Shown here: positions 2,904-47,131 of the stretch, in pieces | Layout of the letters: each line of letters begins with the position of its first letter | How positions within the stretch are numbered: position 1 is the first letter of the stretch | IMG/VR virus record: IMGVR_UViG_3300031669_000010 | Coordinates: 23,422 to 87,421 of that record | DNA length: 64,000 nucleotides | Source: a virus | Taxonomy: Duplodnaviria > Caudoviricetes | Direction: 5' to 3' (one strand) | Notes under the pieces: model-generated | What the model saw: the letters and a program-made list of their open reading frames with translations, nothing else | Databases searched by the model: none | Told to the model about the DNA's origin: nothing | Translations under genes and position numbers: made by a program

Positions 2904-3249
2904 TGAAGATAGGCATACATGTAGAGTGTGTCATGGAAGAAAAGTCATACCAGGCAGTTTTACGATTCGTGATGTATGTCCAAATTGTAATGGTATAGGA
3001 GAAATTGATTGGGTCTGCAACGCTATGGGTGGGGAAGGGAGAAATCCCCATCCAGACCATCAATTTTTATATAATATCGCACAACGAAACATTCAAGAAA
3101 TGATTCAGGAAATAAAGCGTCAAGGAGGTATGTTGGGCATGGTGGTAAACATAGAGGTTCATTTTGAAAGAGAACCTTCATTTGAACAAATGTATCTAAC
3201 AAATCCACGCCCAATGTTGTTTCCTAAAAATACAAAATTTCCAGAATAG
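2890..3249 (+). CDS. Protein with DnaJ-type CxxCxGxG zinc finger
   Basis: CRVCHGRK...CPNCNGIG; start reassigned to the ATG at 2890. Confidence 0.6.
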   Translation: MDYRDEDRHTCRVCHGRKVIPGSFTIRDVCPNCNGIGEIDWVCNAMGGEGRNPHPDHQFLYNIAQRNIQEMIQEIKRQGGMLGMVVNIEVHFEREPSFEQMYLTNPRPMLFPKNTKFPE

Positions 3250-3260
3250 GAGACTATAAT

Positions 3261-3698
3261 ATGTACAGATTATCAAAAGAGTTTAGTTTCGCCATGGGTC
3301 ACAGACTCAGTTATCACGAAGGATTATGTAAAAACTTTCACGGTCACAATTACACAGTTATCGTTGGTGTAAAAAGTGAATTTCTCAATGCAAATGGAAT
3401 GGTTATTGATTTCTCAGATCTTAAAGCTGTTGTTGTTGGATATTTGGATGAGATGGATCATGCTCTAATGGTCAATACTATGGATTGGAAGTTCGTCAAA
3501 ACGATGAAAGACCATTTTCCAGATATGAAAATAATTGAGACTCCTTATGAGCCAACAGCAGAAAATATGGCCAGGGATATATTTCTCAATACAAGAAAGG
3601 TGCTAACCGCAAATCTTGGAGTTAAACTAGGAATTGAAGTCGACTTTGTAACTGTTTATGAAACAGATACATCGCAGGCAACTTATTCAGATGATTAA
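3261..3698 (+). CDS. queD: 6-carboxytetrahydropterin synthase QueD
   Basis: FAMGHRL..HEGLCKNFHGHNY, VIDFSDLK, DHALMVN, PTAENMA, VYET. Confidence 0.94.
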   Translation: MYRLSKEFSFAMGHRLSYHEGLCKNFHGHNYTVIVGVKSEFLNANGMVIDFSDLKAVVVGYLDEMDHALMVNTMDWKFVKTMKDHFPDMKIIETPYEPTAENMARDIFLNTRKVLTANLGVKLGIEVDFVTVYETDTSQATYSDD

Positions 3699-6533: not shown

Positions 6534-6759
6534 TCGAAAAGGATTTACATTGATTGAAGTAATAGTCGTGATAGTTATCCTTGCTATCTTGGCTATGGTT
6601 GTGGTTCCAATGCTTGCTGTAATATATTCCGATTCAGATAGTGAACCGGTTCAAATCATGACACAGAATGAGGAAAAGGCATTAGAGGATAAAGACGAAA
6701 CTCCAAAGCTTCAAGAGCCTGAAGTAGAAAAATCAAAAGGAGATATGAATAAATTATGA
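6511..6759 (+). CDS. Short type IV prepilin/pseudopilin-like protein
   Basis: NRKG|FTLIEVIVVIVILAILAMVVVP class III signal peptide followed by an acidic tail. Confidence 0.82.
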   Translation: MLLQKLNNRKGFTLIEVIVVIVILAILAMVVVPMLAVIYSDSDSEPVQIMTQNEEKALEDKDETPKLQEPEVEKSKGDMNKL

Positions 6760-7781
6760 AGTTTGCATTTATGGCCGACATTCATCTTTCAAAATATGCG
6801 CAAGATAAACTCGAAGATGAATCAAATCTTCCTGAGCGATTACACAGTATTAAAATGGCTTTACACGAAGTAGCAGAGTATTGTATTGGCCATGATATTC
6901 CAACCATCATCATTGGTGGTGATATCCTTCATGGTAAGTCAATCATACATGCAATCGCTCAGGATATAATGCTGGAGTATTTTCAAACATTTGGAAAGAA
7001 AATCAGCTTTGTGGTTATCGATGGAAATCATGATCTGTCTGGCAAGGGAGAAGATGTTGTTTCAGCATTGAGATCTCTTTCGACAGTGCCCGGTGTATCT
7101 TGGGTTCCCCATAATCGAGTAGAGAGGACCAAAGAAGATATATTGTTGGTTCCGTATTCACATAGTGTATCAAAGATTGTAAAAGAAAACAAAGCAAGGA
7201 TTCTGATTTCACACTTCGGCCTTACCGAAGCAATGTTAAGTTCAGGTATGAGTATCGTATCTGATATTAGCGTTTCAGATTTGGTCGGAAAATATGAATT
7301 AGTGTTACTCGGTCATTATCACAAACCTCAAGAAATTATCAAAGAGAACTTCAGGTTGTATTACTCAGGATCATTGATTCAATTAGACTGGGGTGAGAAG
7401 GGCGAGATTAAAAGGTTTCTGGTTGTCGATACAGATTCAATGCAAGTCGATGAAATTCCAATAACTCATTATCGAAAACACATTGAAATTGAATTAACTG
7501 ACTTAAATAAAGATGAAGCATTTAAGGCTGCTAAGGAAGCTACAGATGCAGGACACCATGTTAAAGTTCTTATGAAAGAGAAGGTCGATTTATCAAGAGT
7601 CAAGGGAAACTTTAACATCGTAGACAAAACAGAAACCGATATAACAGACAGGGGTATCACAAGTTCAATGTCTCAGAAGGATCGAATTGATCGCTATATT
7701 GAAATAAAAGAAATTCCTGAACATCTAAGGGATGAATATTCAAAAGAGGCATTAGATATTATTGAAAATTGCGAGGTATGA
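6756..7781 (+). CDS. sbcD: SbcD/Mre11 (T4 gp47-like) nuclease
   Basis: ADIH, GGDILH, GNHD, SHFG, LGHYH metallophosphoesterase motifs; adjacent to SbcC. Confidence 0.9.
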   Translation: MKFAFMADIHLSKYAQDKLEDESNLPERLHSIKMALHEVAEYCIGHDIPTIIIGGDILHGKSIIHAIAQDIMLEYFQTFGKKISFVVIDGNHDLSGKGEDVVSALRSLSTVPGVSWVPHNRVERTKEDILLVPYSHSVSKIVKENKARILISHFGLTEAMLSSGMSIVSDISVSDLVGKYELVLLGHYHKPQEIIKENFRLYYSGSLIQLDWGEKGEIKRFLVVDTDSMQVDEIPITHYRKHIEIELTDLNKDEAFKAAKEATDAGHHVKVLMKEKVDLSRVKGNFNIVDKTETDITDRGITSSMSQKDRIDRYIEIKEIPEHLRDEYSKEALDIIENCEV

Positions 7782-7782
7782 T

Positions 7783-9972
7783 ATGAGGCGAATTGATATT
7801 CAAGAAGTGGGGATGGAGAATTTTGGTCCGTATATCGACCCCATGATTTTAGAATTTAAACCTGACTCCATGGTTTTAATGACTGGTCCAAATGGTATCG
7901 GTAAGACAATGTCCCTTGACGCAATTCCATTTACATTCTATGGTGTTACGAGCAAAGGTGCAAAGGGCGATGATGTGGTAAATAACGTTATCGGCAAAAA
8001 TTGTAAAACATGGGTCAAGTTTGATATTGATAATGACAGATATCTTATTACCCGGTATCAGAAATATACAAAAGCAGGAACCACAGTCATTCTCAACAAA
8101 AACGATGTTGATATTAAAAAGGGTCATAAAGAAGTATTGCCTGAAATTGAAAAATTGATATGTTCAAAGAAATCATTTATGAACACATTGATGTTTGGTC
8201 AGAAGGTAAAAGACTTCTTTACAGATCTACTTGATTCTGATAAAAAGACAATCTTTCGAGAAATATTGGCACTCGAACTTTATCAGGTATATTACAAGAA
8301 GGCTGATGAACGATTGAAAGCTGTCAAGGCTGAACTTGAGGAAATTGAAAAACAGCAAGGAATCAATCATGGGTTGAATGAAGATGCCAATGCTCAAATT
8401 GAGTTGCTACGAGGTCTCCAGAAAAAATGGGAGCAGGAAAAGAAAGAAGCCCTAATCGAACTCAAGAAGTCAATTGATACAAACAAACGTCTATTAGAAA
8501 CTTGGAAAGAGGCATTGAAAGCTCTTAAAAAGGAAGATGTTGATATTGGCGACACATTGAAGGCCTTAGATTATGTTAGATCTGAGTTGAGTACAATCCA
8601 AGAAAGATTTGATGCTGAATTGCAATCAATTGAACAGAGAAAAACTACCAAACTTCTCGAGATACAAAACAAAGCAAATGAAGTATCTAATGAAATTAAG
8701 GCAAGATACAGGATAGAGTATGATCGAATTGATAAAGAGGTAGCGGAGTTAAAAGAATCATCAAACGATCTTGTTAATACAGCTCAGACGAGAAGGCATA
8801 AGGTCGAACTCAAAATTGAAAACATTGAATCTAACATAAGAAATTGGCAGGAACGGGCAAAGGAGATACAAGATAATGTCTTCGAGGCCGGTATTACAGA
8901 GTGCCCCTTATGTCAGCAGGAAGTGTCAGATAAAACTATTGAGTTGTTGGGTGAAAAAGTTGCAGGTTATGATAATGATGTGAGTGAAGCTCTTAAGTTA
9001 GTAATCAAGCAGCAAGAACAGATCAAAGAGATCAACGCCAAAATGATTGCAGGATCAAAGAAACTGACAGGATTCATTGAAGCTCTTCAAGGTACTAAGC
9101 AATTATTAATAAGTAAAGAAATGATAGAAGTGAAAGAACTTGATCTTCGATTAATCCAAGCAACTGAAAAAGTTAATGATTTGGCGGGGAATGAAGCTGG
9201 ACTAAAAGAGATTGCAGTTCAAAAAGCTAAAGATGAACTTGAATCTACAGAGCTGACATTACAGGCGACATATGAGCTTCAGGAAAAAGCTATTGAAAGT
9301 AGAAATGAAGTGCAGGAAAGAGTCGAGAGTTTGAAGCAGGAAATAAGTCGAATGGAAAGTCAGATCAAGGACAAAGAAGAATCCAAGCATGACAAAACCC
9401 AATTGAACTCTTATACGAAACGCTTAATTGATCTTGATAAAGTCCTTCAAGACCTTGAAACAAAGTGGGATGTACTTGATGGTAAGGCACAAAGACTTGA
9501 ATTTTGGAAGTCGGCGTTTTCACCATCAGGAATTCCATCTATGTTGATTGATGAAGCAATTCCATTTATGAATGAGAAGGTTTCATACTATCTCGAAAAA
9601 TTCACAAATGGTCGATATATCGTATCATTTGATACACTAGCAGCAACAAAGGCCGGAGAGTTCAGAGATAAAATTTCGGTCAATGTTGTTGATACATATA
9701 CACGAGCAAATTCAAGGGTTCAATTGTCCGGTGGGCAAACACGAATCATTGATATTGCTACAATCCTAACGCTTGGGGATTTACAATCAAGCATTCAAGA
9801 AGTATCAATAAACATCTTGTTATTTGATGAAATATTTGATAGTCTTGACGAAGAAAACATCGGCTACGTATCTAAAGTATTGTCCCAATTGAAGTTTGGA
9901 AAATCTATTTATTTAATTTCACACAGACATGAGGATCAATTAGAAGTCGATGAAACTCTGACATTGCATTAA
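7783..9972 (+). CDS. sbcC: SbcC/Rad50 (T4 gp46-like) ATPase
   Basis: GPNGIGKT Walker A, coiled coil with CPLC zinc hook, LSGGQ signature, LLFDE Walker B, ISH. Confidence 0.93.
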   Translation: MRRIDIQEVGMENFGPYIDPMILEFKPDSMVLMTGPNGIGKTMSLDAIPFTFYGVTSKGAKGDDVVNNVIGKNCKTWVKFDIDNDRYLITRYQKYTKAGTTVILNKNDVDIKKGHKEVLPEIEKLICSKKSFMNTLMFGQKVKDFFTDLLDSDKKTIFREILALELYQVYYKKADERLKAVKAELEEIEKQQGINHGLNEDANAQIELLRGLQKKWEQEKKEALIELKKSIDTNKRLLETWKEALKALKKEDVDIGDTLKALDYVRSELSTIQERFDAELQSIEQRKTTKLLEIQNKANEVSNEIKARYRIEYDRIDKEVAELKESSNDLVNTAQTRRHKVELKIENIESNIRNWQERAKEIQDNVFEAGITECPLCQQEVSDKTIELLGEKVAGYDNDVSEALKLVIKQQEQIKEINAKMIAGSKKLTGFIEALQGTKQLLISKEMIEVKELDLRLIQATEKVNDLAGNEAGLKEIAVQKAKDELESTELTLQATYELQEKAIESRNEVQERVESLKQEISRMESQIKDKEESKHDKTQLNSYTKRLIDLDKVLQDLETKWDVLDGKAQRLEFWKSAFSPSGIPSMLIDEAIPFMNEKVSYYLEKFTNGRYIVSFDTLAATKAGEFRDKISVNVVDTYTRANSRVQLSGGQTRIIDIATILTLGDLQSSIQEVSINILLFDEIFDSLDEENIGYVSKVLSQLKFGKSIYLISHRHEDQLEVDETLTLH

Positions 9973-9981
9973 GGTGTCGCT

Positions 9982-10362
9982 ATGAAAATAAAAAATGATT
10001 TCGTTACAAATAGTTCTTCCTCATCATTTGTATTTGAAGCATCGGAAAAGATTTTGCGAAAAGATATCGAGAAACATATGAGATTCTATTACGCTGAATG
10101 CTTCCGGTGCTTCACTAACAAAAAGAGTTTAACAGAGTTTACAGAAGCAGGCTACGGAGACTGGGTTTCAAAGGCAAGGGGTGAACCTGCTACATTTTGG
10201 AATATGGATCCATCCTGTTACAGAGAAGCATGTAAGATTTTAAATTGTGGTATGTTTGTCATCTATGCTTCTGTTGACAGGAACGATATGGACAGAGTTG
10301 AGAAGTTCCAGGATCTTGTGGAAGATCGTGGTGGAAGAATAAGAACCAGGAGTGGAGATTAA
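9982..10362 (+). CDS. MKxKxDFVTNSS-motif protein 5
   Basis: MKIKNDFVTNSSSSSF; directly upstream of a radical SAM gene. Confidence 0.75.
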   Translation: MKIKNDFVTNSSSSSFVFEASEKILRKDIEKHMRFYYAECFRCFTNKKSLTEFTEAGYGDWVSKARGEPATFWNMDPSCYREACKILNCGMFVIYASVDRNDMDRVEKFQDLVEDRGGRIRTRSGD

Positions 10363-10363
10363 T

Positions 10364-11410
10364 ATGAGTCAAGTTCGAATCGTAAATTGGCTGCTCACAA
10401 GAAGGTGTAATCTAAAATGTGAGTATTGTGCCATTGTTAAAAACTATAAGGGTAAACCGTCTAGTTATCCGGATATGAGACATTATATCAAACATGAAAT
10501 GCCAACCAATGTAGTCATTAATGCATTAAAGGGATTCAAGATTCATAATCCGAATGTATTTCATATATTCTATGGTGGCGAGCCATTGCTAAGACCTGAT
10601 CTTGCAGACATCATAAATTATTGTAATGAAAATGAAATCTACTATACAGTAATCAGCAACAATACTTCAGGCATTCAAGATCGTATAAGAATGCTATTTG
10701 ACAAAGTTGAATACATTGAGGGGTTCACAAGTTCTGTTGATCCAATCTTCAATGAAATTGGTGCTAAAGAAGACAGAGTCAAAAAGAGTATTGAAGGTCT
10801 GAGGCGATTAAAAGAAATTCAAGCTGCTGGAAAAGTGAAAGATGTTGTTGCTGAAATAACAGTTATGAAACACAATCAAGATCTTTTATACAGACTCATC
10901 CGAGAGTTGAGTGATGAGGAAATATATAGTGATATTACATTCGTTGATATTGCAAAAACTAAGTATTATGATTTTTCAAATGTCTTGGATGAAACATTTT
11001 TAGTTAGACCAACATTTGAACTAGCAGAAGAGTTGATCGACATTATAACTGATAATCGTTTATTGGTTCATATGAAGGACATTCTAATACCTAAGATGTT
11101 CGATACACTTCCATCGAATTTTGACTGTGAGATTGAAAAGGGTTTGCATAACTTGACAATTGATGCTGATGGTTCAATCAGATTGTGTTTAAGAATTAGG
11201 GGTATTGCATCTCCTTCATACAATGTGACTGAACTATTTGATCCAACATATCCTGAACTTATTTCTGCGGATGTGTATAGTGCAATAAAAGGTGATAAGA
11301 AGCACTACTGTTCGTTGTGTAACCATTCCTGTTTAATGATGAGTCAGTATTTTGATACAACTAATGAGGAAGTGGATACACTAATACATTCCGATAAACG
11401 GAGGGAGTAA
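10364..11410 (+). CDS. Radical SAM protein with C-terminal Cys (SPASM/twitch-like) extension
   Basis: CNLKCEYC, YGGEPLLR, C-terminal C...IDADGSIRLC...CSLCNHSC. Confidence 0.88.
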   Translation: MSQVRIVNWLLTRRCNLKCEYCAIVKNYKGKPSSYPDMRHYIKHEMPTNVVINALKGFKIHNPNVFHIFYGGEPLLRPDLADIINYCNENEIYYTVISNNTSGIQDRIRMLFDKVEYIEGFTSSVDPIFNEIGAKEDRVKKSIEGLRRLKEIQAAGKVKDVVAEITVMKHNQDLLYRLIRELSDEEIYSDITFVDIAKTKYYDFSNVLDETFLVRPTFELAEELIDIITDNRLLVHMKDILIPKMFDTLPSNFDCEIEKGLHNLTIDADGSIRLCLRIRGIASPSYNVTELFDPTYPELISADVYSAIKGDKKHYCSLCNHSCLMMSQYFDTTNEEVDTLIHSDKRRE

Positions 11411-11413
11411 ACT

Positions 11414-11755
11414 ATGGCAGACGAACCTACAAAAGATTCTGTAGATAGTGACATAATTGTTAGCGCAATAATGTTCTGGAAAAAGGTATACGAAGAGAAA
11501 GAAGTCATTATCAAATTTATAAAAAAAGATAAGACTAATCGAATCATGAGATGTACCTTAGATTTCAAAAAGATTCCTGTGAAAGATCAACCCAAAAGTG
11601 TCAACATTGAAGTCATTCTAAGATTAATTCAGAAAAACAAAATCATGCATGTTTATGATCTTGATAAAAAAGCATGGCGTTCGGTTCCGTTCGATAGGGT
11701 TGAATATATGGATACAAAGAATCGACGATATTTCACAAAGAAACAACCAGTATAA
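11414..11755 (+). CDS. Small SH3/WYL-like phage protein
   Basis: FIKKDKTNRIMRCTLD...VYDLDKKAWRSVPFDRV pattern. Confidence 0.65.
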   Translation: MADEPTKDSVDSDIIVSAIMFWKKVYEEKEVIIKFIKKDKTNRIMRCTLDFKKIPVKDQPKSVNIEVILRLIQKNKIMHVYDLDKKAWRSVPFDRVEYMDTKNRRYFTKKQPV

Positions 11756-12148: not shown

Positions 12149-14746
12149 ATGTTAAATGGGTATCTAACAGATGAAATCCGAATTAATTCTAAATATGCAC
12201 ATGTATATAGATCTGAATATCCCGATAACCTTGAATCAGATTCTATTCCAATTGTTCATAGACATTCTTTGTTGACAGAAGATTATCTGCGACGCATGAC
12301 AAGTGGAATTTCTGGAAATGGAATGAGTATTCTTCCTCCAAATTGCAGATACATTGAAAATGTAAAACAAGGTAATATTGTGATAATTGAAGAACCTCCT
12401 GCATTTAGAACAATTTCAATCTATATGAGCTTTACTAAGGAAGTTGAAAGATTGAAGGCGGAAGGAAAACTTGCTGAGTATGGTTTTGATGAAGATTTTG
12501 CAAGAGAGTCAATGGCCAAAAGATTCACTCTAGCATTTCCATATGTCATATTTATTTTATACTTCACAAGATACAATGAATTGTCCTGTGGCCAAGCATA
12601 TCTGAGAGTAGCTAGACTTTCAGGCCTATCTGATTACCTTCTAAAAATACCACTCACAAACATTGCAGAGAGTCAGTATATCTGTTTTGGTTCTAAGGCT
12701 GGTGGTTCGGCAGAAACATTAAATGCAGGTGTTGAAAAAGTAATCGACGTATTTTGGGGAGCTGAGTTTAACACCGACTATACATATAACTATACTGCAT
12801 ATAGAGATATTGCCGGCGTAAATTCTTATATGGAATGGCAAGCATTGTCAGCAAGTAATCCCATGTTCATTTATAATGTTGATTGGATGAAGATTCCAAT
12901 GAATATTGGGCAGGCCCTTGATGAAGTAAAACGCCATTATAAACTGTCAAGTTCGTCTGATATACAATATAAAAATCTTTCCAGTATGTTTTCAGTACCT
13001 CTGGATTCAGGAAAGGATGAGGCTCCAACTAAGAGATCTCGAAAGAAATATAGATTGTTTTATGATGTTGCCCAAGGTATATTTCTTGATGAGAATTACT
13101 ATGTCCATGTGGGTGATTCGTTCCAAAACAAAAGTGGGACGATGTTTTTCATCAACTCCTTTATTAGTTTTGCAGACAGTGGTGATGTTAAATATGTCCG
13201 CGTTGAAAGAGAAGACGGAAGACTTATCGTATTAAAATTTACCAAATCAGTCTCACACTATTTAAAAGAGCGAACTAAAGCTCTTCGTTATGAAGCAGAA
13301 GGAATTCTGAAAAATGGTGTTGTCGTTAAAGAGAATGATATTATCAAACTGACAAATGCAATTGGAGATGCGGTATATAAGAAAGTCACTTTCATTCGTA
13401 AATCCCAAGAGGGATTCCACGAAGGACGGTTTGGTGATGGATTTTACATTCTAGAAAACACCGAAGGTGAAGTATATGATGTTACAAATCCAGAATATCG
13501 AGGTATTAAACTGAAGAAAAATACAGATTATCTGTACATGAAAACTGAAAATGAGGTACCATTCAACCAAGGGTGTATTGTAAATTTCACAGGCATAGAA
13601 GCAGATAATCGTGGAAGATTAAATATCGACATGACTCACAAAGACAATGATTTTAGAGGGAGTCCGTACAAAATTCCATTGAATCAGTCAAACTCAAACA
13701 TACGACTGTATGAAATGGATCAAGTTAAACCTCTACCACCTGTTTTCAGACTTGGTCGAAAGTTATTAGTCAACAGAAAGAATGATAGAAATCTGTATGA
13801 AAATTCTGTCTTCGGAACTCCGTATGGTATTATATACGATTCTGGATATGGTAATATGGATAAAGCGAATCCCGATGAAATAAAGAAATACATGCTTGGG
13901 GAAGATAAATTCCAAGTTAAAAGTTTCGATTTAGACATTGAGTTTAATATAGGAGATAAGGTTGTCGTGGCTGATTTTGAAAATCCGATCAATATGCTTT
14001 CAGTGAAAACCATTCAGGGGTTTAAGTTCACAGAAGGAGTTGGAGATATTCATTTCATATTAGCAGATAAACAGGGCAACCTACAACAAGAAGAATATGT
14101 GAAAGGAAGATATGGAACAATTCATACCGGCAGAATTAGAAAGATTTCAAATGTTTTTGGTGAACTGACAGCTGGAACAAAGATCAAATCTAATATAGCT
14201 GGATTCCCACACTTCGCAAAAAAAGACACAAATATTATCATTGGTTTTCTGACTGATACAGGAGGACCAGATCCATTGGTTCTATGCTCCAATTGCTGTA
14301 CAATGTGGTATAGAGATGTGGTGGAATGCTTTAAACATATTCCAATAAAGTCAGCTGAATGGGCGAAAACAGCACATTCTCCAATTGATGTAGCTAAGAT
14401 TAAATATCAACCAGGTGACATTCTTATAGGAACTGGTAGTAGCGATTATAGATCCAATACCGGATGGTTGTTATTTAAGGTCACTGGCTCAAACAGTATT
14501 AAAGCGATGGATTTTAATTACTATAATGCATGGCCAGATTATTTCACTCTGGATAGATATATTACGACTAATTCAAAATTTGATTGTATCCCTAACCCAC
14601 GAATCGGTCCCAAGGCTCAAAGTGAGATGGAAATAATTCGATCATGGCCGAATATGCATGGTTATTATTTTTCATGTGATAAAGCCAAATTCCGATTCCT
14701 AAACGATGAGAGGAGTATGGTGAATGTTCAAAGTAGTTCTGAATGA
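12149..14746 (+). CDS. Prokaryotic E2-like protein (family D/PRTRC-B-like) with long C-terminal extension
   Basis: LAFPYVIF...IPLTNIAESQYICFG (Cys179)...FWGAEFNTD; directly upstream of JAB, E1 and Ubl. Confidence 0.75.
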   Translation: MLNGYLTDEIRINSKYAHVYRSEYPDNLESDSIPIVHRHSLLTEDYLRRMTSGISGNGMSILPPNCRYIENVKQGNIVIIEEPPAFRTISIYMSFTKEVERLKAEGKLAEYGFDEDFARESMAKRFTLAFPYVIFILYFTRYNELSCGQAYLRVARLSGLSDYLLKIPLTNIAESQYICFGSKAGGSAETLNAGVEKVIDVFWGAEFNTDYTYNYTAYRDIAGVNSYMEWQALSASNPMFIYNVDWMKIPMNIGQALDEVKRHYKLSSSSDIQYKNLSSMFSVPLDSGKDEAPTKRSRKKYRLFYDVAQGIFLDENYYVHVGDSFQNKSGTMFFINSFISFADSGDVKYVRVEREDGRLIVLKFTKSVSHYLKERTKALRYEAEGILKNGVVVKENDIIKLTNAIGDAVYKKVTFIRKSQEGFHEGRFGDGFYILENTEGEVYDVTNPEYRGIKLKKNTDYLYMKTENEVPFNQGCIVNFTGIEADNRGRLNIDMTHKDNDFRGSPYKIPLNQSNSNIRLYEMDQVKPLPPVFRLGRKLLVNRKNDRNLYENSVFGTPYGIIYDSGYGNMDKANPDEIKKYMLGEDKFQVKSFDLDIEFNIGDKVVVADFENPINMLSVKTIQGFKFTEGVGDIHFILADKQGNLQQEEYVKGRYGTIHTGRIRKISNVFGELTAGTKIKSNIAGFPHFAKKDTNIIIGFLTDTGGPDPLVLCSNCCTMWYRDVVECFKHIPIKSAEWAKTAHSPIDVAKIKYQPGDILIGTGSSDYRSNTGWLLFKVTGSNSIKAMDFNYYNAWPDYFTLDRYITTNSKFDCIPNPRIGPKAQSEMEIIRSWPNMHGYYFSCDKAKFRFLNDERSMVNVQSSSE

Positions 14747-16310
14747 TGGGCAGAATGAAATGCCCGAAGACGATATTTATTATATTATTGGAAAGGAGGG
14801 TGTGTACCTCAAGAAGAAACTTGGGGTGATGGATAGTCTTGCACCTGTAAAAAATATCTCCATTTTGCAAAGTGTAATTTCATCTGCACAAATGCATATA
14901 ACACCCATACCAGGCATGTGGATTGCCAAAGTTATGAACTTCTTCCGCGAAGTTTATAAAGAGTATAGATCCGAAGCCATTGTTCTGTTGTTTTACAATG
15001 AGGAAACAGGACATCATAAAATTGTTCCCCCTCATCAAAAAGTTGCAGGAGCATCATGTGACTATGATAAAGGGATCACTATAGAAGGTTATACAATGAT
15101 CGGAACCATTCATAGTCACGGAAATATGTCAGCATTTCATTCCGGTACTGATGATAAAGACGAAGAACATTTTGATGGTCTTCATATGACATTTGGTGAT
15201 TTGGACGAAGACTATCCAAGTATATCAGCATCAATTGTGTCAAATGGTTTCCGGCAAATGATTGAACCAGAACAATATATTAAAGATTTGGTTTGTATGG
15301 CCGAGACAAATTCTGTTGATAATAAAGCTGTTAGAACGGTTTATAAATGGGTTGACGGGGTGCTTACTGAAGATGAAGAAGCTGCTCCAAAATATACCTA
15401 TCAATGGAAAAAGTTTGACAGGCGATATGATGTTACGTGCTCAGACCGTGAGAGAATCTTTAACAAGAAGTGGATGCGCATGGTCGAAAAGGGTACCTAT
15501 ACTTACAAGAGTTACAATGCTGGTTCCGGTTACAGAAGTCTATATGGATGGACTGGTCATGGATGGGGTCAAAATTATGATCGTGGTGCATGGTCCCAAG
15601 CTGGTCGACTCCTACCACCCGGAGCACAAACACAAACGAAAGGTGTACCTCCTCAGAACGTTGGCGTTACAGTTAAACCTCTTGAATTTCCCCCGCATAC
15701 ACAAGATGGAGACTTTATGCCTTGCGTGACATGTACTCATAGAATGTGCAAACTTACCTCTGAAATTGAAGAGGATGATTTTGAAGAAATGTATTATTGT
15801 GAGAAGTGTGGAGAGATTGTTAAGGAGGACGCAGATTTGGTCATTATATGTTCAACATGTAAAACCGATGATCATCTTATTCTCTTAGATAAAGATGATC
15901 TATTGACCAATCAATATATACCAGGTGATGAATACGACCACATGTTTGACAGGGATTCTGCTGGAGTTATCAGACAAGAAGAAACCCTTTATGTTAAATG
16001 CAAAGAATGTGGTAATGGTTTCCATATGTTTGAGGACGATTCTATATGTCCTTTCTGTTATGCCCAAGTAAACGAGAGTTATTCCTCGGAAGATGCCTTA
16101 GAGGTTCAAACCGAAAACGATTCAGGGGCCTTTCTCAATCAAGAAACAGAAGACGCAAACAATGCAGCATTATTGGAAGCGGCGAATCGAGAAGATGAAA
16201 CGCTCGAAAGAATACCCGAACCAGGATCAAATGTAATACCGATACCTGAAAAGAAAGACACCGGTTTAGCAGCAATGTTCCGGAAAGTCTTCTCAAAGGA
16301 AAGAATATAA
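14724..16310 (+). CDS. JAB/JAMM metallopeptidase (PRTRC-A-like) with Cys-rich C-terminal region
   Basis: E84 plus H130-S-H132-x7-S140-xx-D143 JAMM motif; five CxxC pairs in the C-terminal half. Confidence 0.9.
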   Translation: MFKVVLNDGQNEMPEDDIYYIIGKEGVYLKKKLGVMDSLAPVKNISILQSVISSAQMHITPIPGMWIAKVMNFFREVYKEYRSEAIVLLFYNEETGHHKIVPPHQKVAGASCDYDKGITIEGYTMIGTIHSHGNMSAFHSGTDDKDEEHFDGLHMTFGDLDEDYPSISASIVSNGFRQMIEPEQYIKDLVCMAETNSVDNKAVRTVYKWVDGVLTEDEEAAPKYTYQWKKFDRRYDVTCSDRERIFNKKWMRMVEKGTYTYKSYNAGSGYRSLYGWTGHGWGQNYDRGAWSQAGRLLPPGAQTQTKGVPPQNVGVTVKPLEFPPHTQDGDFMPCVTCTHRMCKLTSEIEEDDFEEMYYCEKCGEIVKEDADLVIICSTCKTDDHLILLDKDDLLTNQYIPGDEYDHMFDRDSAGVIRQEETLYVKCKECGNGFHMFEDDSICPFCYAQVNESYSSEDALEVQTENDSGAFLNQETEDANNAALLEAANREDETLERIPEPGSNVIPIPEKKDTGLAAMFRKVFSKERI

Positions 16311-17002
16311 TGAGCGATACTACTGAGCTTTATATTTCTGTTATTGGTCTTGGTGGGGTTGGAACTATTTTAATCGAAAGATTATGTAGATTCCTAAACT
16401 ATTCAAAAGATCTTACCGCAGAATTCCTTCTGGTGGACGGAGATGAGTATGAGCAGAAGAATTATGAAAGGCAGGAGTTTTCAAGAATTGGAAACAAAGC
16501 CGATATAAAAGCCACCGAGTTGGAAATGAAGTTTAAAGATTTGCGGTTCGATACGCTCGAAGCCTTCATAGACGAATCAAATATTGAGAACGTTATTAAA
16601 GAAGGTGATATTGTTTTTCTATGTGTTGATAATCACAAATCCAGAATGATTGTTTCAAATTACTGTAAAAAATTACAAGATGTTATTTTAATTTCTGGCG
16701 GGAATGATTTCACAGATGGTAATGTACAGATTTACGTCCGGAAGGCGGGGGCCGATTTAACTCCGGATCTATGTGCATATCATCCTGAAATTGCAAATCC
16801 CGATGATAGGTTACCGCAAGAAATGAGCTGTCAAGAGCTCGCAAACTCAGATCCTCAGCTATACTTTGCTAATTTGGGGGTCGCTACTCTTATGTGTTGG
16901 GCTTTCTACAACGCTGTTGTTAGAGGGCAATATGAACGGTCTGAGGTTTACTTCGATCTTACAAGTATGACCACAGATGCAAAAATCCGAATGGTGAAAT
17001 AA
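16310..17002 (+). CDS. E1-like ThiF/MoeB adenylating enzyme
   Basis: GLGGVG, DGDEYEQKNYERQ, LCVDNHKSR, SGGN, SCQE (Cys174, putative catalytic) followed by QLYFAN. Confidence 0.9.
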   Translation: MSDTTELYISVIGLGGVGTILIERLCRFLNYSKDLTAEFLLVDGDEYEQKNYERQEFSRIGNKADIKATELEMKFKDLRFDTLEAFIDESNIENVIKEGDIVFLCVDNHKSRMIVSNYCKKLQDVILISGGNDFTDGNVQIYVRKAGADLTPDLCAYHPEIANPDDRLPQEMSCQELANSDPQLYFANLGVATLMCWAFYNAVVRGQYERSEVYFDLTSMTTDAKIRMVK

Positions 17003-17028
17003 AATAGAGAAGTAAGGAGATTAAAATC

Positions 17029-17493
17029 ATGGCTAGAAGTTTTTCGAGAGAAGCACTGGAAGAAAAGACGTCCAAGGAACTTAAAAGAATGTGTGTTGAT
17101 GAGCTCAATATCGTCGGCGTCACCAAGAAACCCAAGGACGATGTTATCAACGCCATTATGGCACAGTACGGCGCGGCATCTAAACCCGCTGCAATCGCCA
17201 AAGATACGAAGCTGACCGGTATCAAATTCACGGGTCAAAGTACCCTGACGAAACCGGATTCTCCGTTTGGCTCCCGTACAACCACAACCATTCATGTTTC
17301 CTGTGGTGCATCCTCAGGTAACTTCCCAGTAGCCGGCAAAACAGTGAAAGACGTTGGGGACTTCCTTCGTGAGGTTCTGAACGTGGATCGTCTGTCCACC
17401 GGACTGGTCAATGGTAAAGAAGTCGGCGCAGACTATATTCTGAGCTCCGGCGACAACCTGGAATTCCTGAAACCAGCAGGAAAAAAGGGTTAA
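17029..17493 (+). CDS. Ubiquitin-like (beta-grasp) protein with N-terminal Rho_N/HeH-like module
   Basis: C-terminal VSCGA...GKTVKDV...LVNGKEV..DYILSSGDNLEFLKPAGKKG*; N-terminal LEEKTSKELKRMC.DELNI.G.TK.PKDDVINAI. Confidence 0.85.
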   Translation: MARSFSREALEEKTSKELKRMCVDELNIVGVTKKPKDDVINAIMAQYGAASKPAAIAKDTKLTGIKFTGQSTLTKPDSPFGSRTTTTIHVSCGASSGNFPVAGKTVKDVGDFLREVLNVDRLSTGLVNGKEVGADYILSSGDNLEFLKPAGKKG

Positions 17494-17502
17494 AATAAAT
17501 GC

Positions 17503-17526
17503 GGAGGGAGCCTTCGGGTTCCCTCC
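17503..17526. other. Stable cUUCGg hairpin right after the Ubl gene
   Basis: GGAGGGAGCC-TTCG-GGTTCCCTCC; no U-tract on the + strand, so possibly a stabilising/processing hairpin or a minus-strand terminator. Confidence 0.7.
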
Positions 17527-17546: not shown

Positions 17547-18146
17547 ATGAATCCAAATACACAAAGAATTCTTGCTGAGAATAGCATTGATAAAATTTCT
17601 TTTTATTTCATCAATAGCCCCATTGTAAATAATGCATTTACAGTGTGTATTCTCATAAACTCTTTTGAGAAGAGAATCGAAGCAAGAGGAGTTTCTATTT
17701 GTTCTCTCATGGATACTTTTTCCAAATCCGAAGGTAAGAATAAAGCGTTTGGACGTGCAGTTAAAGCTATCGCAAGGAGAGAAAATAACTGGAAGATTAA
17801 TGGGTCCGGTCGAGATGATGAATTTGTTCCACGGTCGTTCAAAGTGAAAACAGAAAAAGATGATGATGGTTTTAGGGGCGGAGTTGCACCCGAACTTCAA
17901 CGAATAAATCCACACCTGCCAATCAGAGTTCAAGATAGTGGTAGGTTTAAAAAATATTCATTTGAAATTCCTGCAAGTTATCCCATGAGACTGGCAAACT
18001 CTTTATTCAAATATAAGTCACACTACCGACCTGTTCCAGTTGGAGATGAAGAGAACGAGCTTCTTAAGAGGCTAACTATATTTACAGAACCAATCGAAAA
18101 TGAAAGTTCCAATTTACTTGTTTCAACATTTGGAATCGAAGATTAA
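17547..18146 (+). CDS. Hypothetical phage protein
   Basis: AAGGA RBS; ARGVSICSLMDTFSKSEGKNKAFGRA motif recalled from small phage proteins. Confidence 0.7.
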   Translation: MNPNTQRILAENSIDKISFYFINSPIVNNAFTVCILINSFEKRIEARGVSICSLMDTFSKSEGKNKAFGRAVKAIARRENNWKINGSGRDDEFVPRSFKVKTEKDDDGFRGGVAPELQRINPHLPIRVQDSGRFKKYSFEIPASYPMRLANSLFKYKSHYRPVPVGDEENELLKRLTIFTEPIENESSNLLVSTFGIED

Positions 18147-18160: not shown

Positions 18161-18195
18161 GGGGGGTTTCTAACAACCCCCCACATTTATTTTTT
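18161..18195 (+). terminator. Putative intrinsic terminator
   Basis: GGGGGGTT-TCTAAC-AACCCCCC followed by a T-rich tract. Confidence 0.7.
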
Positions 18196-18213: not shown

Positions 18214-19074
18214 GTGGTGTACAAAAATGTAGTAATAATTGGTCTCGGTACACTTGGTGGGTATATCGCAGAGGCTGTAACCAATTTAGACAGCACCGAA
18301 AAAATAGTAATAATAGACCACGATATAGTTGAACAGAAGAATTTGAAAAATTCCATATACAGGCAAATTGATATAGGAAGTCCTAAGGTAGAAGCTTTGA
18401 AAGATATTCTTCAACATGAACAACCAGATGTTGAAGTATGGGCGTTTCATGCAAAGTATGAAGAAGGCAAGACAAAAATTCCAAAAGAAGATTTGGTTAT
18501 TGATTGCAGGGACTTTACCTATAATAGACAAAGTGAAATTGATGCAAGATTCTATATATCATCAAGATATTTAATGGCTGATTTTAGAAAGAATATTAAA
18601 TACAAACAGCAGCAAGTAGGAAAATACATTTTACAATTATCAAGAAATGATTTGAGACATGCTGCGTCAATTGGTTCTATGTTAATTCATAGTAATACAA
18701 TTGAATCTCTAATAAAAAGCCAATCTGTTCAAAAATATGAACTCGATTATGTCAAACACACGGACAATTGTAGATATGACGTTGTGTATGAAAATGTAGT
18801 GGGGGAAGAAAAGTTTGTTAATCTCCCCGATAAGATCGTCCCAATTATGGAGATGAATCAAAAAGGGGATTTAACCATCTTTCTCGGAAGTAGAGTATAT
18901 CCAATTTCTGAATCAGTGATACCAATTAAAAGTTTGGTAAACAGTTCTGATGTGATCTCGAGTCTTGCATCTGTAGTTGCTTGCCAAACAGATTTCAATA
19001 ATTTTGTGATATCTATATTCAAGGAAAATAGTAATGTTTTTATTGAACTTATACCTGATACTGGAGCTGCGTGA
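18214..19074 (+). CDS. Second, divergent ThiF/E1-like protein
   Basis: IIGLGTLGG, DHDIVEQKNL, GSPKVEAL, VIDCRD; lacks the NLxRQ Arg. Confidence 0.78.
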   Translation: MVYKNVVIIGLGTLGGYIAEAVTNLDSTEKIVIIDHDIVEQKNLKNSIYRQIDIGSPKVEALKDILQHEQPDVEVWAFHAKYEEGKTKIPKEDLVIDCRDFTYNRQSEIDARFYISSRYLMADFRKNIKYKQQQVGKYILQLSRNDLRHAASIGSMLIHSNTIESLIKSQSVQKYELDYVKHTDNCRYDVVYENVVGEEKFVNLPDKIVPIMEMNQKGDLTIFLGSRVYPISESVIPIKSLVNSSDVISSLASVVACQTDFNNFVISIFKENSNVFIELIPDTGAA

Positions 19075-19448
19075 TGGAGATAATTAATCATGAGATAACA
19101 GACTATATCAGACCAAGGAAGTTGATTTTTAAAAATGAGATATTTACAATCACCAAATTAGCACAGAAGTTTGAAATTGCTAGTTATGTGATAAAAACTG
19201 TCAATGAAAAAATTGACATGGTTATATTAAACAATCCACATCCAAATGCAATACCAAGGAGTGGTGAGTTTTGTATACCAAATAACTTACGAAAATATGA
19301 GTTGACTCAAAACTCTAAAAATATGATTACTAGCATGTTATCATGCTTCAACTTAGACGATTGTTACTTCACACCTTGGGATGAAATAGAATATGAAAAA
19401 CAAGAGGTGATAGGAGCATATGGAAGAAAATCAGAAGATAACCAATGA
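19071..19448 (+). CDS. Small E2/UBC-like protein (putative)
   Basis: HPN(57-59)-x8-C68 (HPNAIPRSGEFC); overlaps the stop codon of the E1-like gene. Confidence 0.55.
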   Translation: MMEIINHEITDYIRPRKLIFKNEIFTITKLAQKFEIASYVIKTVNEKIDMVILNNPHPNAIPRSGEFCIPNNLRKYELTQNSKNMITSMLSCFNLDDCYFTPWDEIEYEKQEVIGAYGRKSEDNQ

Positions 19449-26419: not shown

Positions 26420-27325
26420 ATGACAAAAGATTGCTTACCAGACGTTCAATGTACACCACCAAACATTAATATCCCAATTATGCAAGTAGGGGTTGAGAAT
26501 GTTGAAGTACCATTTAAACTTGAGACAAGGGGACATACAGGATTTCATCAAATGATTGCAAATGTTGCTATCAGAACAAGCCTTGACTCTGACACAAAAG
26601 GTATTTCGATGTCTCGACTCTTACTTACATTGAAACCATATTTGGATCTACCTTTAAAGAGTACGTTAATTAAAGAGATCCTTGAAAAGATTATTAAAAA
26701 TGTTGGCCCGAGTGAGACTTTCGGAAATAGTGCTGCATATATAACATTCGATTTCAGAATGCCAATTACCAGGCAATCAGTTGTATCCGATAATCAATTT
26801 CCAATTTATTACAAATGCAGATTTGAAGGGCAGATCTATGATATTCAAATGACTAAACCCGATGGCAAGAAAGAAAGGCAGTGGCATTTCAGATTCTTTC
26901 AAGGTGCAAAAATTCAATATGCATCTTATTGCCCATGCTCTGCTGAATTGTGTAGTGTTCTCGACAGTCGGGGATTCCCACATAATCAAAGATCGTTTGC
27001 TGATGTAATGGTTGAGGTTGACGCATATAGCAGTAAGTATGTTTGGTTGGAAGACATTATCGAGTCTGTTGAAAATGTTATTCCTACCCTACCATATCCG
27101 ATCATCAAAAGGGTTGATGAACAGGAGATTGCCAGAATTGCTGGAGAGAATCCAATGTTTGTTGAAGATGCAATTAGATCAATATCTAATTCTTTGATGA
27201 ATCTAGATGGAATTGTTGATTGGATAGTTAAGTGTAGACATGAAGAATCAATACATACATCTGAAGCAATTGCAGTCAATTGGAAGGGAGTTCACGGAGG
27301 GTTTGACGAAAGGCGATATTTATGA
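26420..27325 (+). CDS. folE2: GTP cyclohydrolase I type B (FolE2)
   Basis: LPDVQ, QVGVENV, KGISMSRL, SYCPCS, PHNQRS, NPMFVEDAIR, HEESIH. Confidence 0.93.
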   Translation: MTKDCLPDVQCTPPNINIPIMQVGVENVEVPFKLETRGHTGFHQMIANVAIRTSLDSDTKGISMSRLLLTLKPYLDLPLKSTLIKEILEKIIKNVGPSETFGNSAAYITFDFRMPITRQSVVSDNQFPIYYKCRFEGQIYDIQMTKPDGKKERQWHFRFFQGAKIQYASYCPCSAELCSVLDSRGFPHNQRSFADVMVEVDAYSSKYVWLEDIIESVENVIPTLPYPIIKRVDEQEIARIAGENPMFVEDAIRSISNSLMNLDGIVDWIVKCRHEESIHTSEAIAVNWKGVHGGFDERRYL

Positions 27326-28044
27326 TTGAAGTTGCAATTTCATATGGATTCGGTGCAGACAATAGATATAATCTTGAAGAGATTCCACCGAAAATACAAC
27401 TAGCAAGTTATAAGTTTGATCCATTGATAGAGAATCAAGATAAAATTATTGACACATTAGAAAAAGCAGGAACTAACTTGTTGGTTGTTCACCTACCTCT
27501 TGATGTACTTCACCAAGACAAAGATGAAATACTTGATGTAATATTTACATTCAATCAGACATTTGCCTGCAATCATTTTGTAATACACCCTAACAAGGGA
27601 ATTGAGGATTTTCTTGATTACTATTTGGAAAATAAATTGATGAAGCTTCCAGTCAAATATGACTATAGCTTATGTATCGAGACTTTTCAATGGAGAAAGA
27701 AAAAGAAAATACGAAGTCCTCTGGATATTATGGAGTATTGTATTAAGAATCCAGAATTTAGCATGTGTATTGATACTAGTCATATTGAATCTATATGGTT
27801 CGATCATAAAATCATGCGCACTCTTTTGAAATACACAAGCGTTATTCATCTTTCAAATCGTGCAAAGGGGCACGGTTCTCATATGCCATTCAATTCACCA
27901 CATGGAGATTTAAATCTTGTTGGATTTATTAAAGATTTGAAACATATATATAAGTGGAATGGTATTATTGTTCTTGAATACATGCCAGAACATCAAGATA
28001 AATTACTTAAAAATTACTATTACGCAAAGAGGTTATTGGAATAA
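27322..28044 (+). CDS. Xylose-isomerase/AP-endonuclease-2-like TIM barrel protein
   Basis: VHLP, VIHP, IET, CIDTSH, IHLS, HMP, VLEY metal-ligand pattern. Confidence 0.75.
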   Translation: MIEVAISYGFGADNRYNLEEIPPKIQLASYKFDPLIENQDKIIDTLEKAGTNLLVVHLPLDVLHQDKDEILDVIFTFNQTFACNHFVIHPNKGIEDFLDYYLENKLMKLPVKYDYSLCIETFQWRKKKKIRSPLDIMEYCIKNPEFSMCIDTSHIESIWFDHKIMRTLLKYTSVIHLSNRAKGHGSHMPFNSPHGDLNLVGFIKDLKHIYKWNGIIVLEYMPEHQDKLLKNYYYAKRLLE

Positions 28045-29077: not shown

Positions 29078-29830
29078 ATGAATGAAAATTTATCCCAAAT
29101 GGTAAGAGAAGGGCAAGGAGAAGAGGCAGTCGTATTTTCAGAGGATCAACTTGACCTTCCGGTACAGGAAGAGACCCCGGCAGCAGAAACCGGTGTGGTA
29201 GAAGCACAAACAAATGTGATTGCTATTACATCTTTATCGAATTGGTTTGAAGCGAACTGCTCATCCTTCGATAACATCAATCAGGTGAAAGTGGCGATTC
29301 GTGGTGTCAATGGAGAACAGACACTTATCATGGCAGTGAAGGATGCTGACGGCGAGCAAGATACCGAAGGTAATGCCAAGAGAAGTCTTCGCGTATTTGA
29401 AAACGCCGATGTGCATCCAGTACTGAACATTCCCGGAGCTTCAATGGAAGTTTATAACAACGGTTTTCAGATTGTTTATGGAATCGAGAATAATATTTTC
29501 ATCAAATGTTACGGAGTGCGAACAGGCCTCATAGCTGTTTTCTGTAACAACATTGATGGAAAACTGATCCCATATGCAACAACCCGCATCAAGAAAAAAG
29601 ACACCGAGCTGGAGATTGAAACAAGTGATCCAGCAGCGGTATCGGCAAAACTATTGGCCGGTGCAGATCTAGAAGCCTTACAGCTTCTTTATAAGCAAAG
29701 TGCCAAAGCAATTGAGGAACTAACATCCAATCAGGATGTTGTGAATTGGTTGCTTGACAGACAAGCTGAGGTCACGGACATTAACCATCATCTTCAAATT
29801 GATGGTGTTCTTATTGACATCTTAGCGTAA
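29078..29830 (+). CDS. Hypothetical protein with acidic N-terminus
   Basis: AAAGGAG RBS, 250 aa. Confidence 0.75.
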   Translation: MNENLSQMVREGQGEEAVVFSEDQLDLPVQEETPAAETGVVEAQTNVIAITSLSNWFEANCSSFDNINQVKVAIRGVNGEQTLIMAVKDADGEQDTEGNAKRSLRVFENADVHPVLNIPGASMEVYNNGFQIVYGIENNIFIKCYGVRTGLIAVFCNNIDGKLIPYATTRIKKKDTELEIETSDPAAVSAKLLAGADLEALQLLYKQSAKAIEELTSNQDVVNWLLDRQAEVTDINHHLQIDGVLIDILA

Positions 29831-32472: not shown

Positions 32473-32480
32473 GAATTAGA

Positions 32481-32511
32481 ATAGAGCGATACTGACCGGG
32501 TATCGCTCTAT
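32481..32511. terminator. Perfect 12-bp hairpin ending the replication/accessory block
   Basis: ATAGAGCGATAC-TGACCGG-GTATCGCTCTAT; T-rich sequence downstream. Confidence 0.75.
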
Positions 32512-32538
32512 CCTACAACTTTTATGTCTATTTTTTTT

Positions 32539-36637: not shown

Positions 36638-36650
36638 GGAGATACACTAG

Positions 36651-40355: not shown

Positions 40356-40366
40356 GGAGATAAAAA

Positions 40367-42771: not shown

Positions 42772-42774
42772 ATA

Positions 42775-45264: not shown

Positions 45265-45275
45265 CCTTTATCTCC

Positions 45276-45953
45276 TTAGCAAGGAATTGGAATTCTTGGT
45301 GTAAAATAAAATCCAACTCTATTGTCAAACAATGTATCCTTTAAAATTGGTTTCAAAAGCGAATCTTTATACAGTAGTCTTGATATAAATTGAGCATCAG
45401 CAAGAGTGTGTATTTGTTTATCATATTCAACAAATGAATATGTATTCTCAACTTGAGCATCCACAGCTTCAAGAGTTTCACTTTGAAATACTTGACATTT
45501 TAATCTCCAATATCTTCTATCTGTATTGGGATGTATCTCTACTCCAGTTACTTGATAAAGAGGATATACATTATTCTTTGGCTGTAAATACTCTTGTTCA
45601 AGCTTTATAATATCATGGGGATAGGGTTTGAAATTATATGTGCTTGGGATAACGATTGTAGTTTCTGTATTTTTATTGTATCCGATTTCTTCACCATCAA
45701 ATGATGTAGTGATTTCTTCCGGATAATATACGGGTAATAATAAAATCTTGTTTCTTTTTATTCCTGTTAAATCGCCCGTTTGTTCATATGCACCACCAAA
45801 TACATCCTCATCTTCCCAAATAGTTTGTCCGATATCTAAATTGTAATAAGTTACCAAATATCTAACGACGGATTTGCTATAATAATCATAAAGTAGCTTT
45901 TGATACTCATGAACGTATTCATATAACCGTTCATAATTTTGCATATATTCCAT
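45276..45953 (-). CDS. Virion structural protein (possible neck/head-closure protein)
   Basis: Structural module location; beta-rich; KPYPHDII...LYQVTGVE. Confidence 0.4.
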   Translation of the reverse strand: MEYMQNYERLYEYVHEYQKLLYDYYSKSVVRYLVTYYNLDIGQTIWEDEDVFGGAYEQTGDLTGIKRNKILLLPVYYPEEITTSFDGEEIGYNKNTETTIVIPSTYNFKPYPHDIIKLEQEYLQPKNNVYPLYQVTGVEIHPNTDRRYWRLKCQVFQSETLEAVDAQVENTYSFVEYDKQIHTLADAQFISRLLYKDSLLKPILKDTLFDNRVGFYFTPRIPIPC

Positions 45954-47128: not shown

Positions 47129-47131
47129 TTA

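Follow-up and report, generated by a model that had tools for sequence, protein, structure and literature searches.

A candidate ubiquitin-like conjugation cassette beside the RNA polymerase genes of an uncultured jumbo phage

We have analysed a stretch of 64,000 nucleotides (the window, whose coordinates are used throughout; positions 23,422 to 87,421 of the IMG/VR virus record IMGVR_UViG_3300031669_000010), with particular attention to a gene for a ubiquitin-like protein (Ubl) that carries an N-terminal helical head of the Rho_N/HeH type. The window has a GC content of 35.8% and 67 open reading frames (ORFs), nearly all of them co-oriented and arranged in blocks. Since it has genes for a tail sheath and a tube-like protein, for a large terminase, and for RNA polymerase subunits beta' and beta that are not split, it is a portion of a large myovirus genome, that of an uncultured jumbo phage. 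No cultured relative was found among 50,697 phage records, either by megablast of the segment 14700-19100 or by tblastn of the Ubl. The contigs with near-identical or related copies reach lengths of 87 to 310 kb. Among public runs, those that contain such phages are DNA runs from soil and marine-sediment metagenomes, with no RNA run listed. There is no second HeH or Ubl copy in the 64-kb window, nor any tRNA gene. The Ubl gene and the signals next to it are:

17013-17019, + strand: Shine-Dalgarno sequence TAAGGAG, with a 9-nt spacer to the ATG
17029-17493, + strand: HeH-Ubl gene, 154 amino acids, ATG start, TAA stop, C-terminus ...PAGKKG
17041-17172, + strand: Rho_N/HeH (SAP/LEM-clan) helical module, residues 5-48, from Pfam, profile and AlphaFold2 (AF2) structure matches
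17173-17283, + strand: variable linker, residues 49-85, from model confidence and the family alignment
17284-17490, + strand: beta-grasp Ubl domain, residues 86-154, with an invariant K153-G154 end, from the domain model and alignment
17503-17526, + strand: G/C-rich hairpin with a 10-bp stem and a UUCG loop at 17513-17516 (free energy -24 kcal/mol, z -3.7)

The original prediction, made from the letters of the sequence, described this protein as a Rho_N/HeH module followed by a linker and a Ubl, and all three parts were borne out. When the Ubl domain was modelled on its own (residues 60-154), the model had a predicted local distance difference test score (pLDDT) of 89.2, and the top 50 matches in the Protein Data Bank (PDB) were all ubiquitin, SUMO, NEDD8, Fubi, MoaD, TtuB or SAMP1, with Z scores of 6.7-8.3, root-mean-square deviations (rmsd) of about 2-3 Å over 58-70 residues and a Foldseek probability of 1.0. 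The C-terminal half of the full-length model had given ambiguous PDB matches to RCK_C or ribosomal proteins; it was the domain-only model that settled the assignment as a Ubl. By sequence, the window protein matches Pfam ThiS (PF02597) with 13.7 bits (E 0.097), below the gathering cut-off of 22.5 bits; 18 of 87 aligned relatives match ThiS at E<=0.01, the relative P0209 scores 67.8 bits, and the relatives with several Ubl units lie well above the cut-off. Neither PHROGs nor PADLOC gave a match for the Ubl, and the Pfam family Multiubiquitin was not among the matches of the multi-unit relatives. The family is a large one (397 homologs at E<=1e-3 among 90% clusters and 448 representatives at 50% identity), and the start of the protein, MARSFS or MGRSFT, is conserved.

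At the C-terminus, K153 and G154 never vary among the 87 aligned sequences, where they close the motif LEF.KPAG.KG. Among 270 family proteins, nothing follows the Gly in 113 and a single Cys follows it in 93; Asn, Tyr and Phe occur as other one-residue caps in one protein each, and a few proteins have short tails. The architectures of 150 representatives comprise HeH-Ubl (89), HeH-HeH-Ubl (16), headless Ubl (30) and proteins in which two to four Ubl units stand in tandem (10). The units of these poly-Ubl proteins are about 68 amino acids long, and each ends in EFVK..G.KG and directly abuts the next, the last unit having a short cap. The same layout of head-to-tail units is found in polyubiquitin precursors. 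Because the Gly is followed either by nothing, by a one-residue cap or by the next unit, it would appear to mark the point of both cleavage and activation. The original prediction had held that the Gly is already exposed and needs no maturation. This is so for the window copy, which is mature as translated, and it does not extend to the family, of which about 40% has a one-residue cap and much of which probably needs trimming by a peptidase, most likely the adjacent JAB protein described below. The resemblance to eukaryotic polyubiquitin and capped precursors thus covers the head-to-tail arrangement, a reactive Gly in each unit and a short, mostly Cys, cap; on the other hand, there is no sequence kinship beyond the fold, the window Ubl is single and uncapped, and processing would be by a JAB metalloprotease. 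One four-unit poly-Ubl (P0142, at 2690-3523 of locus L008) is encoded on a small phage-like contig, with a ThiF gene 2 kb away on its downstream side and, beyond that, a reverse-transcriptase (RVT_1) gene.

The genes around the Ubl have a conserved order: 865-amino-acid protein – JAB – E1a – Ubl – optional small ORF – E1b – 125-amino-acid protein – RpoC. Counting only related loci with sufficient flanking sequence, this order is kept in all of them (14/14 on the left and 16/16 on the right). The partners are:

12149-14746, + strand: Prok-E2_D-like protein, 865 amino acids, with a long C-terminal extension and an invariant Cys179
14724-16310, + strand: JAB/JAMM peptidase, 528 amino acids, with CxxC zinc-ribbon-like segments (Prok-JAB, E 2.6e-6)
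16310-17002, + strand: E1a, a ThiF-type adenylating enzyme, 230 amino acids (Pfam ThiF, E 4.8e-17)
18214-19074, + strand: E1b, a second ThiF-like protein, 286 amino acids (ThiF, E 4e-17 over residues 5-116)
19071-19448, + strand: HPN-Cys protein, 125 amino acids, with an HPN-x8-C-x-P motif that is invariant in four orthologs

Against three relatives that have diverged, identities are 84, 73 and 66% for the Ubl and a comparable 80, 76 and 72% for RpoC, and most neighbours fall below the Ubl. Synonymous divergence is saturated in all genes; in the two more distant comparisons its value (pS) is 0.57-0.63 for the Ubl and 0.70-0.84 for most neighbours, a slightly lower figure that is weak evidence. 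The optional small ORF (17547-18146, + strand, about 199 amino acids; an alternative reading of 215 amino acids from 17499 would begin inside the hairpin) is present in 10 of 16 related loci, is missing from the rest, including L005 and L006, and has no family match. It is flanked by two of the four strong intergenic hairpins of the window (17503-17526 and 18161-18182) and looks like a lineage-specific insertion.

Throughout the clade, the gene immediately before the Ubl is that of E1a, and a 69-amino-acid stand-alone Ubl (P0251) in a different context is likewise directly preceded by a ThiF gene. The enzyme keeps the GLGGVG loop, the ERQ motif, VDN (D107) and an invariant Cys174. When E1a was modelled together with Ubl residues 60-154, the interface score (ipSAE) was 0.76, and the best of three controls reached 0.00. 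This pass amounts to likeness to the solved ThiF-ThiS and MoeB-MoaD binding mode and may partly reflect memory of it; of 80 solved complexes 58 reach the mark set for this score, as do 2 of 110 mismatched pairs. At least 94% of contacts were shared between the runs, with partner pLDDT of at least 72. In the modelled complex the Ubl tail (147-154) contacts E1a residues 13, 15-18 and 105-109, that is, the GxGxxG and VDN motifs of the nucleotide pocket, and the conserved SCGA loop of the Ubl (91-96) contacts the E1a C-terminus. We consider it very likely that the Ubl is activated by E1a. A contig of 255 kb, which was deposited as a Candidatus Thorarchaeota metagenome-assembled genome, encodes an E1a homolog with 73% identity (P0323); this may be either a mis-binned phage contig or a hint as to the host.

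Activation by a ThiF-type enzyme is also what one would expect of a sulfur carrier like ThiS, MoaD, TtuB or Urm1, in which Gly154 would become a thiocarboxylate, the sulfur would be passed on to a nucleoside, to a cofactor or into a DNA modification, and conjugation to proteins would be absent or secondary. By sequence the Ubl family does fall in a ThiS/MoaD-like group, with which it shares the beta-grasp fold and the ThiF-type E1. The best named matches of E1a are ThiF and MoeB (it also matches PRTRC_ThiF over its full length, E 7e-10), and Cys174 lies roughly at what we take to be the position of the ThiF and MoeB Cys. The surroundings of the cassette are suggestive as well: the conserved upstream flank (6756-11755) has Mre11/SbcD-like and SbcC/Rad50-like genes, a radical-SAM protein and a WYL_2 protein, and downstream of the RNA polymerase genes (26420-28044) there are a GTP cyclohydrolase (GCHY-1) and an AP_endonuc_2 protein, which hints at nucleotide or DNA modification chemistry. 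Nevertheless, Pfam searches within 10 kb on either side in four diverged loci found no ThiG, MoaE, TtuA, rhodanese, cysteine desulfurase or PP-loop thiolase, whereas no locus lacks the JAB or an E2_D-like protein that has an invariant Cys. In addition, the capped and poly-Ubl relatives, by which the family differs from ThiS, MoaD, TtuB and SAMP, suit the precursors of a modifier, and a catalytic carrier would need neither an N-terminal head nor the extreme codon optimisation described below. A sulfur carrier accordingly seems to us quite unlikely.

The JAB protein, syntenic in the 14 loci with a left flank, has an intact H-x-H-x7-S-x2-D motif in its translation and also matches PRTRC_A (E 9.6e-11, under the cut-off). 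The deconjugase role originally proposed for it is retained, and in view of the capped and poly-Ubl forms it is likely to be a maturase as well in many relatives. Prok-E2_D is the sole Pfam family of the 865-amino-acid protein and was hit in each of four orthologs (best E 1.8e-5). The Atlas places this protein near viral clusters, 14-22% of whose members have Prok-E2_D; a profile of its N-terminus against PDB sequences gave chance-level matches only. The HPN-x8-C-x-P motif of the 125-amino-acid protein is near the canonical E2 active-site pattern, making it a possible mini-E2. E1b, syntenic in all 16 loci with a right flank, ends in a sequence, EL(I/L)(P/E)(D/E)TGAA, that is invariant in four of four orthologs with an overall identity of 38-70%. 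This tail resembles the LEFLKPAG.KG pattern of the Ubl, and the C-terminal 170 or so amino acids of E1b have no family match; they could be a ubiquitin-fold or E2-recruiting domain, or a fused Ubl. One idea that the gene pair raises is that E1a and E1b might be akin to split eukaryotic E1s.

E1b matches the E1 domain of the CBASS E1-E2 models in PADLOC (best E 3.7e-14), and this raises the question of counter-defence. Since host Ubl conjugation systems attack phage parts (10.1101/2023.09.04.556158; PMC10557695), a phage cassette could compete with or reverse the host Bil or CBASS Cap2/Cap3 systems, tag defence proteins, or supply an excess of Ubl as a decoy, and a high dosage would fit such a competitor. 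Anti-defence genes, however, are usually variable accessories. This cassette is a fixed part of the core: it equals the RNA polymerase in conservation and keeps its gene order in relatives whose Ubls are 55-84% identical. Moreover, none of its proteins matched a sequence model of Bil or Cap3 proteins. We therefore give counter-defence only a small probability.

The N-terminal head matches Pfam Rho_N over residues 10-45 (E 0.001, 19.5 bits, below the cut-off of 24.9), and among the 87 aligned relatives Rho_N is found in 52 (best E 9e-12), SAP in 7 and HeH in 2. The family profile retrieved Thermotoga Rho residues 7-52 from the PDB sequences (E 6e-4). AF2 models residues 5-48 as three helices, whose best structural match is the N-terminus of E. 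coli Rho (1a62_A; Z 7.2, rmsd 1.2 Å over 43 residues); next come SAP, LEM and FAN1-SAP domains and the HeH modules of phage baseplate proteins. The head pattern, L..KT..ELR......GI.G.SKKRKD.I.AI, fits this clan. Conserved basic positions of the head are K19, K33 and K36. The linker that follows varies in the family from 21 to 60 amino acids, with a charge from -12 to +9; in the window protein its pLDDT is below 50 at residues 50-59, and in the domain model its distal part forms short strands (71-73 and 84-86) that pack on the Ubl sheet.

As to what the head may do, its fold is common to DNA-binding SAP, protein-binding LEM and structural phage modules. The head is like the Rho N-terminal subdomain and the SAP/LEM HeH domains in both sequence profile and fold. 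In Rho, however, RNA is bound mainly by the OB (oligonucleotide/oligosaccharide-binding) fold, which together with the ATPase comes after the N-terminal helices, and the phage head has neither behind it. That the head is a nucleic-acid tethering module, as the original prediction suggested, is thus possible and rather doubtful. Bacterial Ubls bear N-terminal domains that are thought to drive self-association (PMC11601603), and, by analogy, a self-association module would be an equally good reading of the head.

Another reading is that the protein is abundant and acts non-covalently, associating through its HeH head with, for example, the nucleoid, RNA or the virion, with the beta-grasp only a binding or oligomerisation module. 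Head fusions do dominate the family, as would suit a role in which the head is important; self-association through N-terminal domains can occur in bacterial Ubls (PMC11601603), and the codon bias suggests bulk amounts. It is difficult, on the other hand, to reconcile a non-covalent role with the invariant terminal Lys-Gly, the removable caps and the poly-Ubl units that abut at Gly, or with the invariant adjacency of an E1 in whose adenylation pocket the tail is modelled; moreover, the family includes stand-alone Ubls that have no head at all. We see only a slender chance for it.

The codon usage of the Ubl gene sets it apart from the rest of the window, as had been noticed by eye. It is the extreme outlier among the 67 ORFs in GC at third codon positions (GC3), with a GC of 0.49 and a GC3 of 0.51, compared with about 0.36 and 0.28 +/- 0.05 for the other 66. 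From its amino acids and the background codons a GC3 of 0.25 +/- 0.03 would be expected (z 7.7), and none of 20,000 simulations exceeded 0.39. CTG accounts for 9 of 12 Leu codons (75%), compared with 8% in the background; the corresponding percentages are 46 and 7 for TCC, 46 and 13 for ACC, 40 and 9 for GGC, and 50 and 10 for CGT. ATC, AAC, GAC and TTC are also enriched, and ATA, TTA and CTA are absent. With a codon index trained on the Ubl genes of two other genomes, the window Ubl lies about 6 standard deviations above the remaining genes. The skew is conserved: Ubl GC3 is 0.52 in L005 (against about 0.25) and 0.63 in L006, and in 13 of 13 IMG/VR loci it exceeds the mean of the neighbours, by varying amounts.

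Such a composition could also be the mark of a recent horizontal acquisition from a GC-richer donor, in which case it would say nothing about expression level, and GC is indeed higher than in the background at each codon position (0.53, 0.44 and 0.51, against 0.45, 0.33 and 0.28). But a recent arrival would hardly show the same skew in 16 related loci whose Ubls are 55-84% identical and whose synteny is identical, nor a Ubl divergence that tracks that of RpoC, and the first 15-20 codons are AT-rich like the rest of the genome. Horizontal transfer is thus a very remote explanation, and the composition appears instead to be a maintained property of the gene.

The two signals that flank the gene were also part of the argument for high expression. 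The Shine-Dalgarno sequence is real and strong, but it is not distinctive, the 7-mer being present before 8 of the 67 genes and a match of six nucleotides or longer before 23. Folding of the 5' mRNA (-30 to +37) is average for the genome (rank 34 of 65) and adds no support. The hairpin after the gene is more particular, being among about four strong intergenic hairpins in 64 kb, and it has a counterpart after the Ubl stop codon in every relative examined, with different stem sequences and the pairing kept. In the distant relatives L008, L009 and L010 a U-tract follows it, and these are ordinary terminators; in general the hairpin could be a 3' stabiliser, an attenuator or a terminator.

Taken as a whole, we favour as the more probable account of the locus a full Ubl conjugation scheme, by which this phage clade would carry out its own protein tagging. 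The C-terminal beta-grasp domain offers a flexible Lys-Gly tail, as seen at the level of fold and sequence. E1a would bind the Ubl and adenylate Gly154, as suggested by the invariant adjacency, the intact adenylation site and the complex model. The acyl group would pass to Cys174 of E1a, then to Cys179 of the 865-amino-acid protein and/or the Cys of the HPN-Cys protein, and finally to amino groups of the targets. Judging from the family anatomy, the JAB would undo the conjugation and, in relatives with a Gly-Cys cap or a poly-Ubl, would also free the mature Gly. Because attachment is via the C-terminus, the Rho_N/HeH head would remain free on every conjugate, there to serve as a nucleic-acid handle or as a protein-docking or self-association module. 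The host-optimal-looking codons and the conserved 3' hairpin, which could end or stabilise the Ubl transcript, suggest that the output of Ubl is far above that of its enzymes, as would befit a stoichiometric substrate that is consumed compared with catalysts that are not.

A number of observations weigh against one or another part of this scheme. The tail of the Ubl is Lys-Gly rather than Gly-Gly, a departure that also counts against a sulfur carrier. The E2 assignment is weak, all of the Prok-E2_D matches of the 865-amino-acid orthologs being at or below the cut-off, and the 125-amino-acid protein has no support from Pfam, from PDB profiles (chance-level matches) or from the Atlas. No E3 and no conjugation target were identified. 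The head is only weakly basic, with a family mean net charge of +1.3 +/- 2.9; although K19, K33 and K36 are conserved, the charges of head and linker are not the profile of a uniform polyanion binder. The hairpin at 17503-17526 has no U-tract, the next sequence being CATACAAAGGAC, and so is not an intrinsic terminator by the usual definition. Finally, the tail sheath has a roughly average codon index and, with other virion genes, is among the lowest of the window in GC3; the virion and packaging block (34054-50322; terminase, virion structural and tube-like genes) is the minimum, most of its genes having values of 0.19-0.24.

This last point bears directly on the prediction of high expression: the codon skew and the hairpin are real, but since abundant virion genes have the lowest GC3, codon bias is no general mark of abundance in this phage. 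The left 33 kb have a GC3 of about 0.26-0.35, which suggests two codon regimes in the window, possibly early and late, and the Ubl bias may belong to a different regime, such as early production that draws on the tRNAs of the host. From its sequence features we still lean towards a highly abundant Ubl. The next two genes by GC3 and codon index, at 29078-29830 (+ strand, GC3 0.39) and 58539-58886 (+ strand, GC3 0.44), are matched by neither Pfam nor PHROGs and may code for other highly expressed products. Fourth on the Ubl-like codon index is a gene for a CreA-family protein at 53785-54282 (+ strand; Pfam E 6e-25), a family that is usually bacterial.

A more far-reaching reading is that a large clade of uncultured jumbo phages has, among its core functions, a eukaryote-like system for tagging proteins in bulk, with a processed and at times polyubiquitin-like precursor, two E1-like proteins, E2-like proteins and a JAB; its tag would covalently graft a free DNA/RNA-binding head of the HeH/SAP type onto phage or host proteins and so tether them to nucleic acid. 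In our opinion this is unlikely. If it were true, the tethering could organise the replicating or packaged genome, or the phage transcription machinery that is encoded next door.

Bacterial Bil and Bub operons and E2_D-JAB-E1 cassettes have been described (PMC1779556; PMC10557695; PMC11601596), and the phage cassette resembles them in its parts: a Ubl of beta-grasp fold that ends in Gly, together with an E1, an E2-like protein and a JAB. Compared with type II Bil (BilABCD), the phage Ubl, JAB and E1 are clear, and the putative E2 has a sub-threshold Prok-E2_D match and an invariant Cys. None of the cassette proteins matched a Bil or Bub model in NCBIfam or PADLOC. The phage cassette differs from the Bil and Bub operons in its Lys-Gly tail, its two E1-like genes and an E2_D-like candidate with an extension of about 570 amino acids, and the Rho_N/HeH head is absent from the N-terminal domains listed for bacterial Ubls in PMC11601603. 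The setting is different too, Bil being a bacterial defence system, whereas the phage cassette is a conserved core module in a genome segment with tail sheath, terminase and RNA polymerase genes. The nearest named hidden Markov model matches of the JAB and E1a are those of the PRTRC/Prok-E2_D-JAB-ThiF cassettes of mobile elements (TIGR03735, TIGR03736; PMC1779556), but the scores are far below the cut-offs (41.6 compared with 101.8 bits and 38.6 compared with 144.75 bits), and there is no ParB or other PRTRC protein among the cassette neighbours and no PRTRC model match for the Ubl. Another pairing known from phages is that of the lambda-type tail protein I, a Ubl, with the JAB-containing protein K (PMC1779556), which likewise combines a phage beta-grasp and C-terminal Gly with an adjoining JAB; that pair, however, belongs to a tail module without E1 or E2, whereas the cassette described here lies among replication and transcription genes and has both E1 and E2-like partners. 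For putative Asgard viruses, three ThiF-like genes have been reported and a hijack of host ubiquitin proposed (10.1101/2021.07.29.454249). A non-exhaustive literature search turned up no account of a Ubl conjugation cassette encoded by a phage, nor of an HeH-Ubl fusion.

Prokaryotic Ubl conjugation is known mainly as a bacterial weapon against phages (Bil, Bub, CBASS Cap2), and here the set would be owned by the phage itself. Because the cassette is fixed beside the RNA polymerase and is equally conserved, conjugation probably belongs to the infection programme and is not an accessory. The Ubl family also provides polyubiquitin-like repeats and one-residue caps outside the eukaryotes. Since the system is small, with a Ubl of 154 and an E1 of 230 amino acids, it is directly testable in E. 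coli, and its targets, once found, would reveal what a virus of prokaryotes gains by tagging proteins.

Elsewhere in the window there is a long, near-perfect inverted repeat at 32477-32515, with arms of up to 16 bp, in the gap ahead of the gene at 32537.

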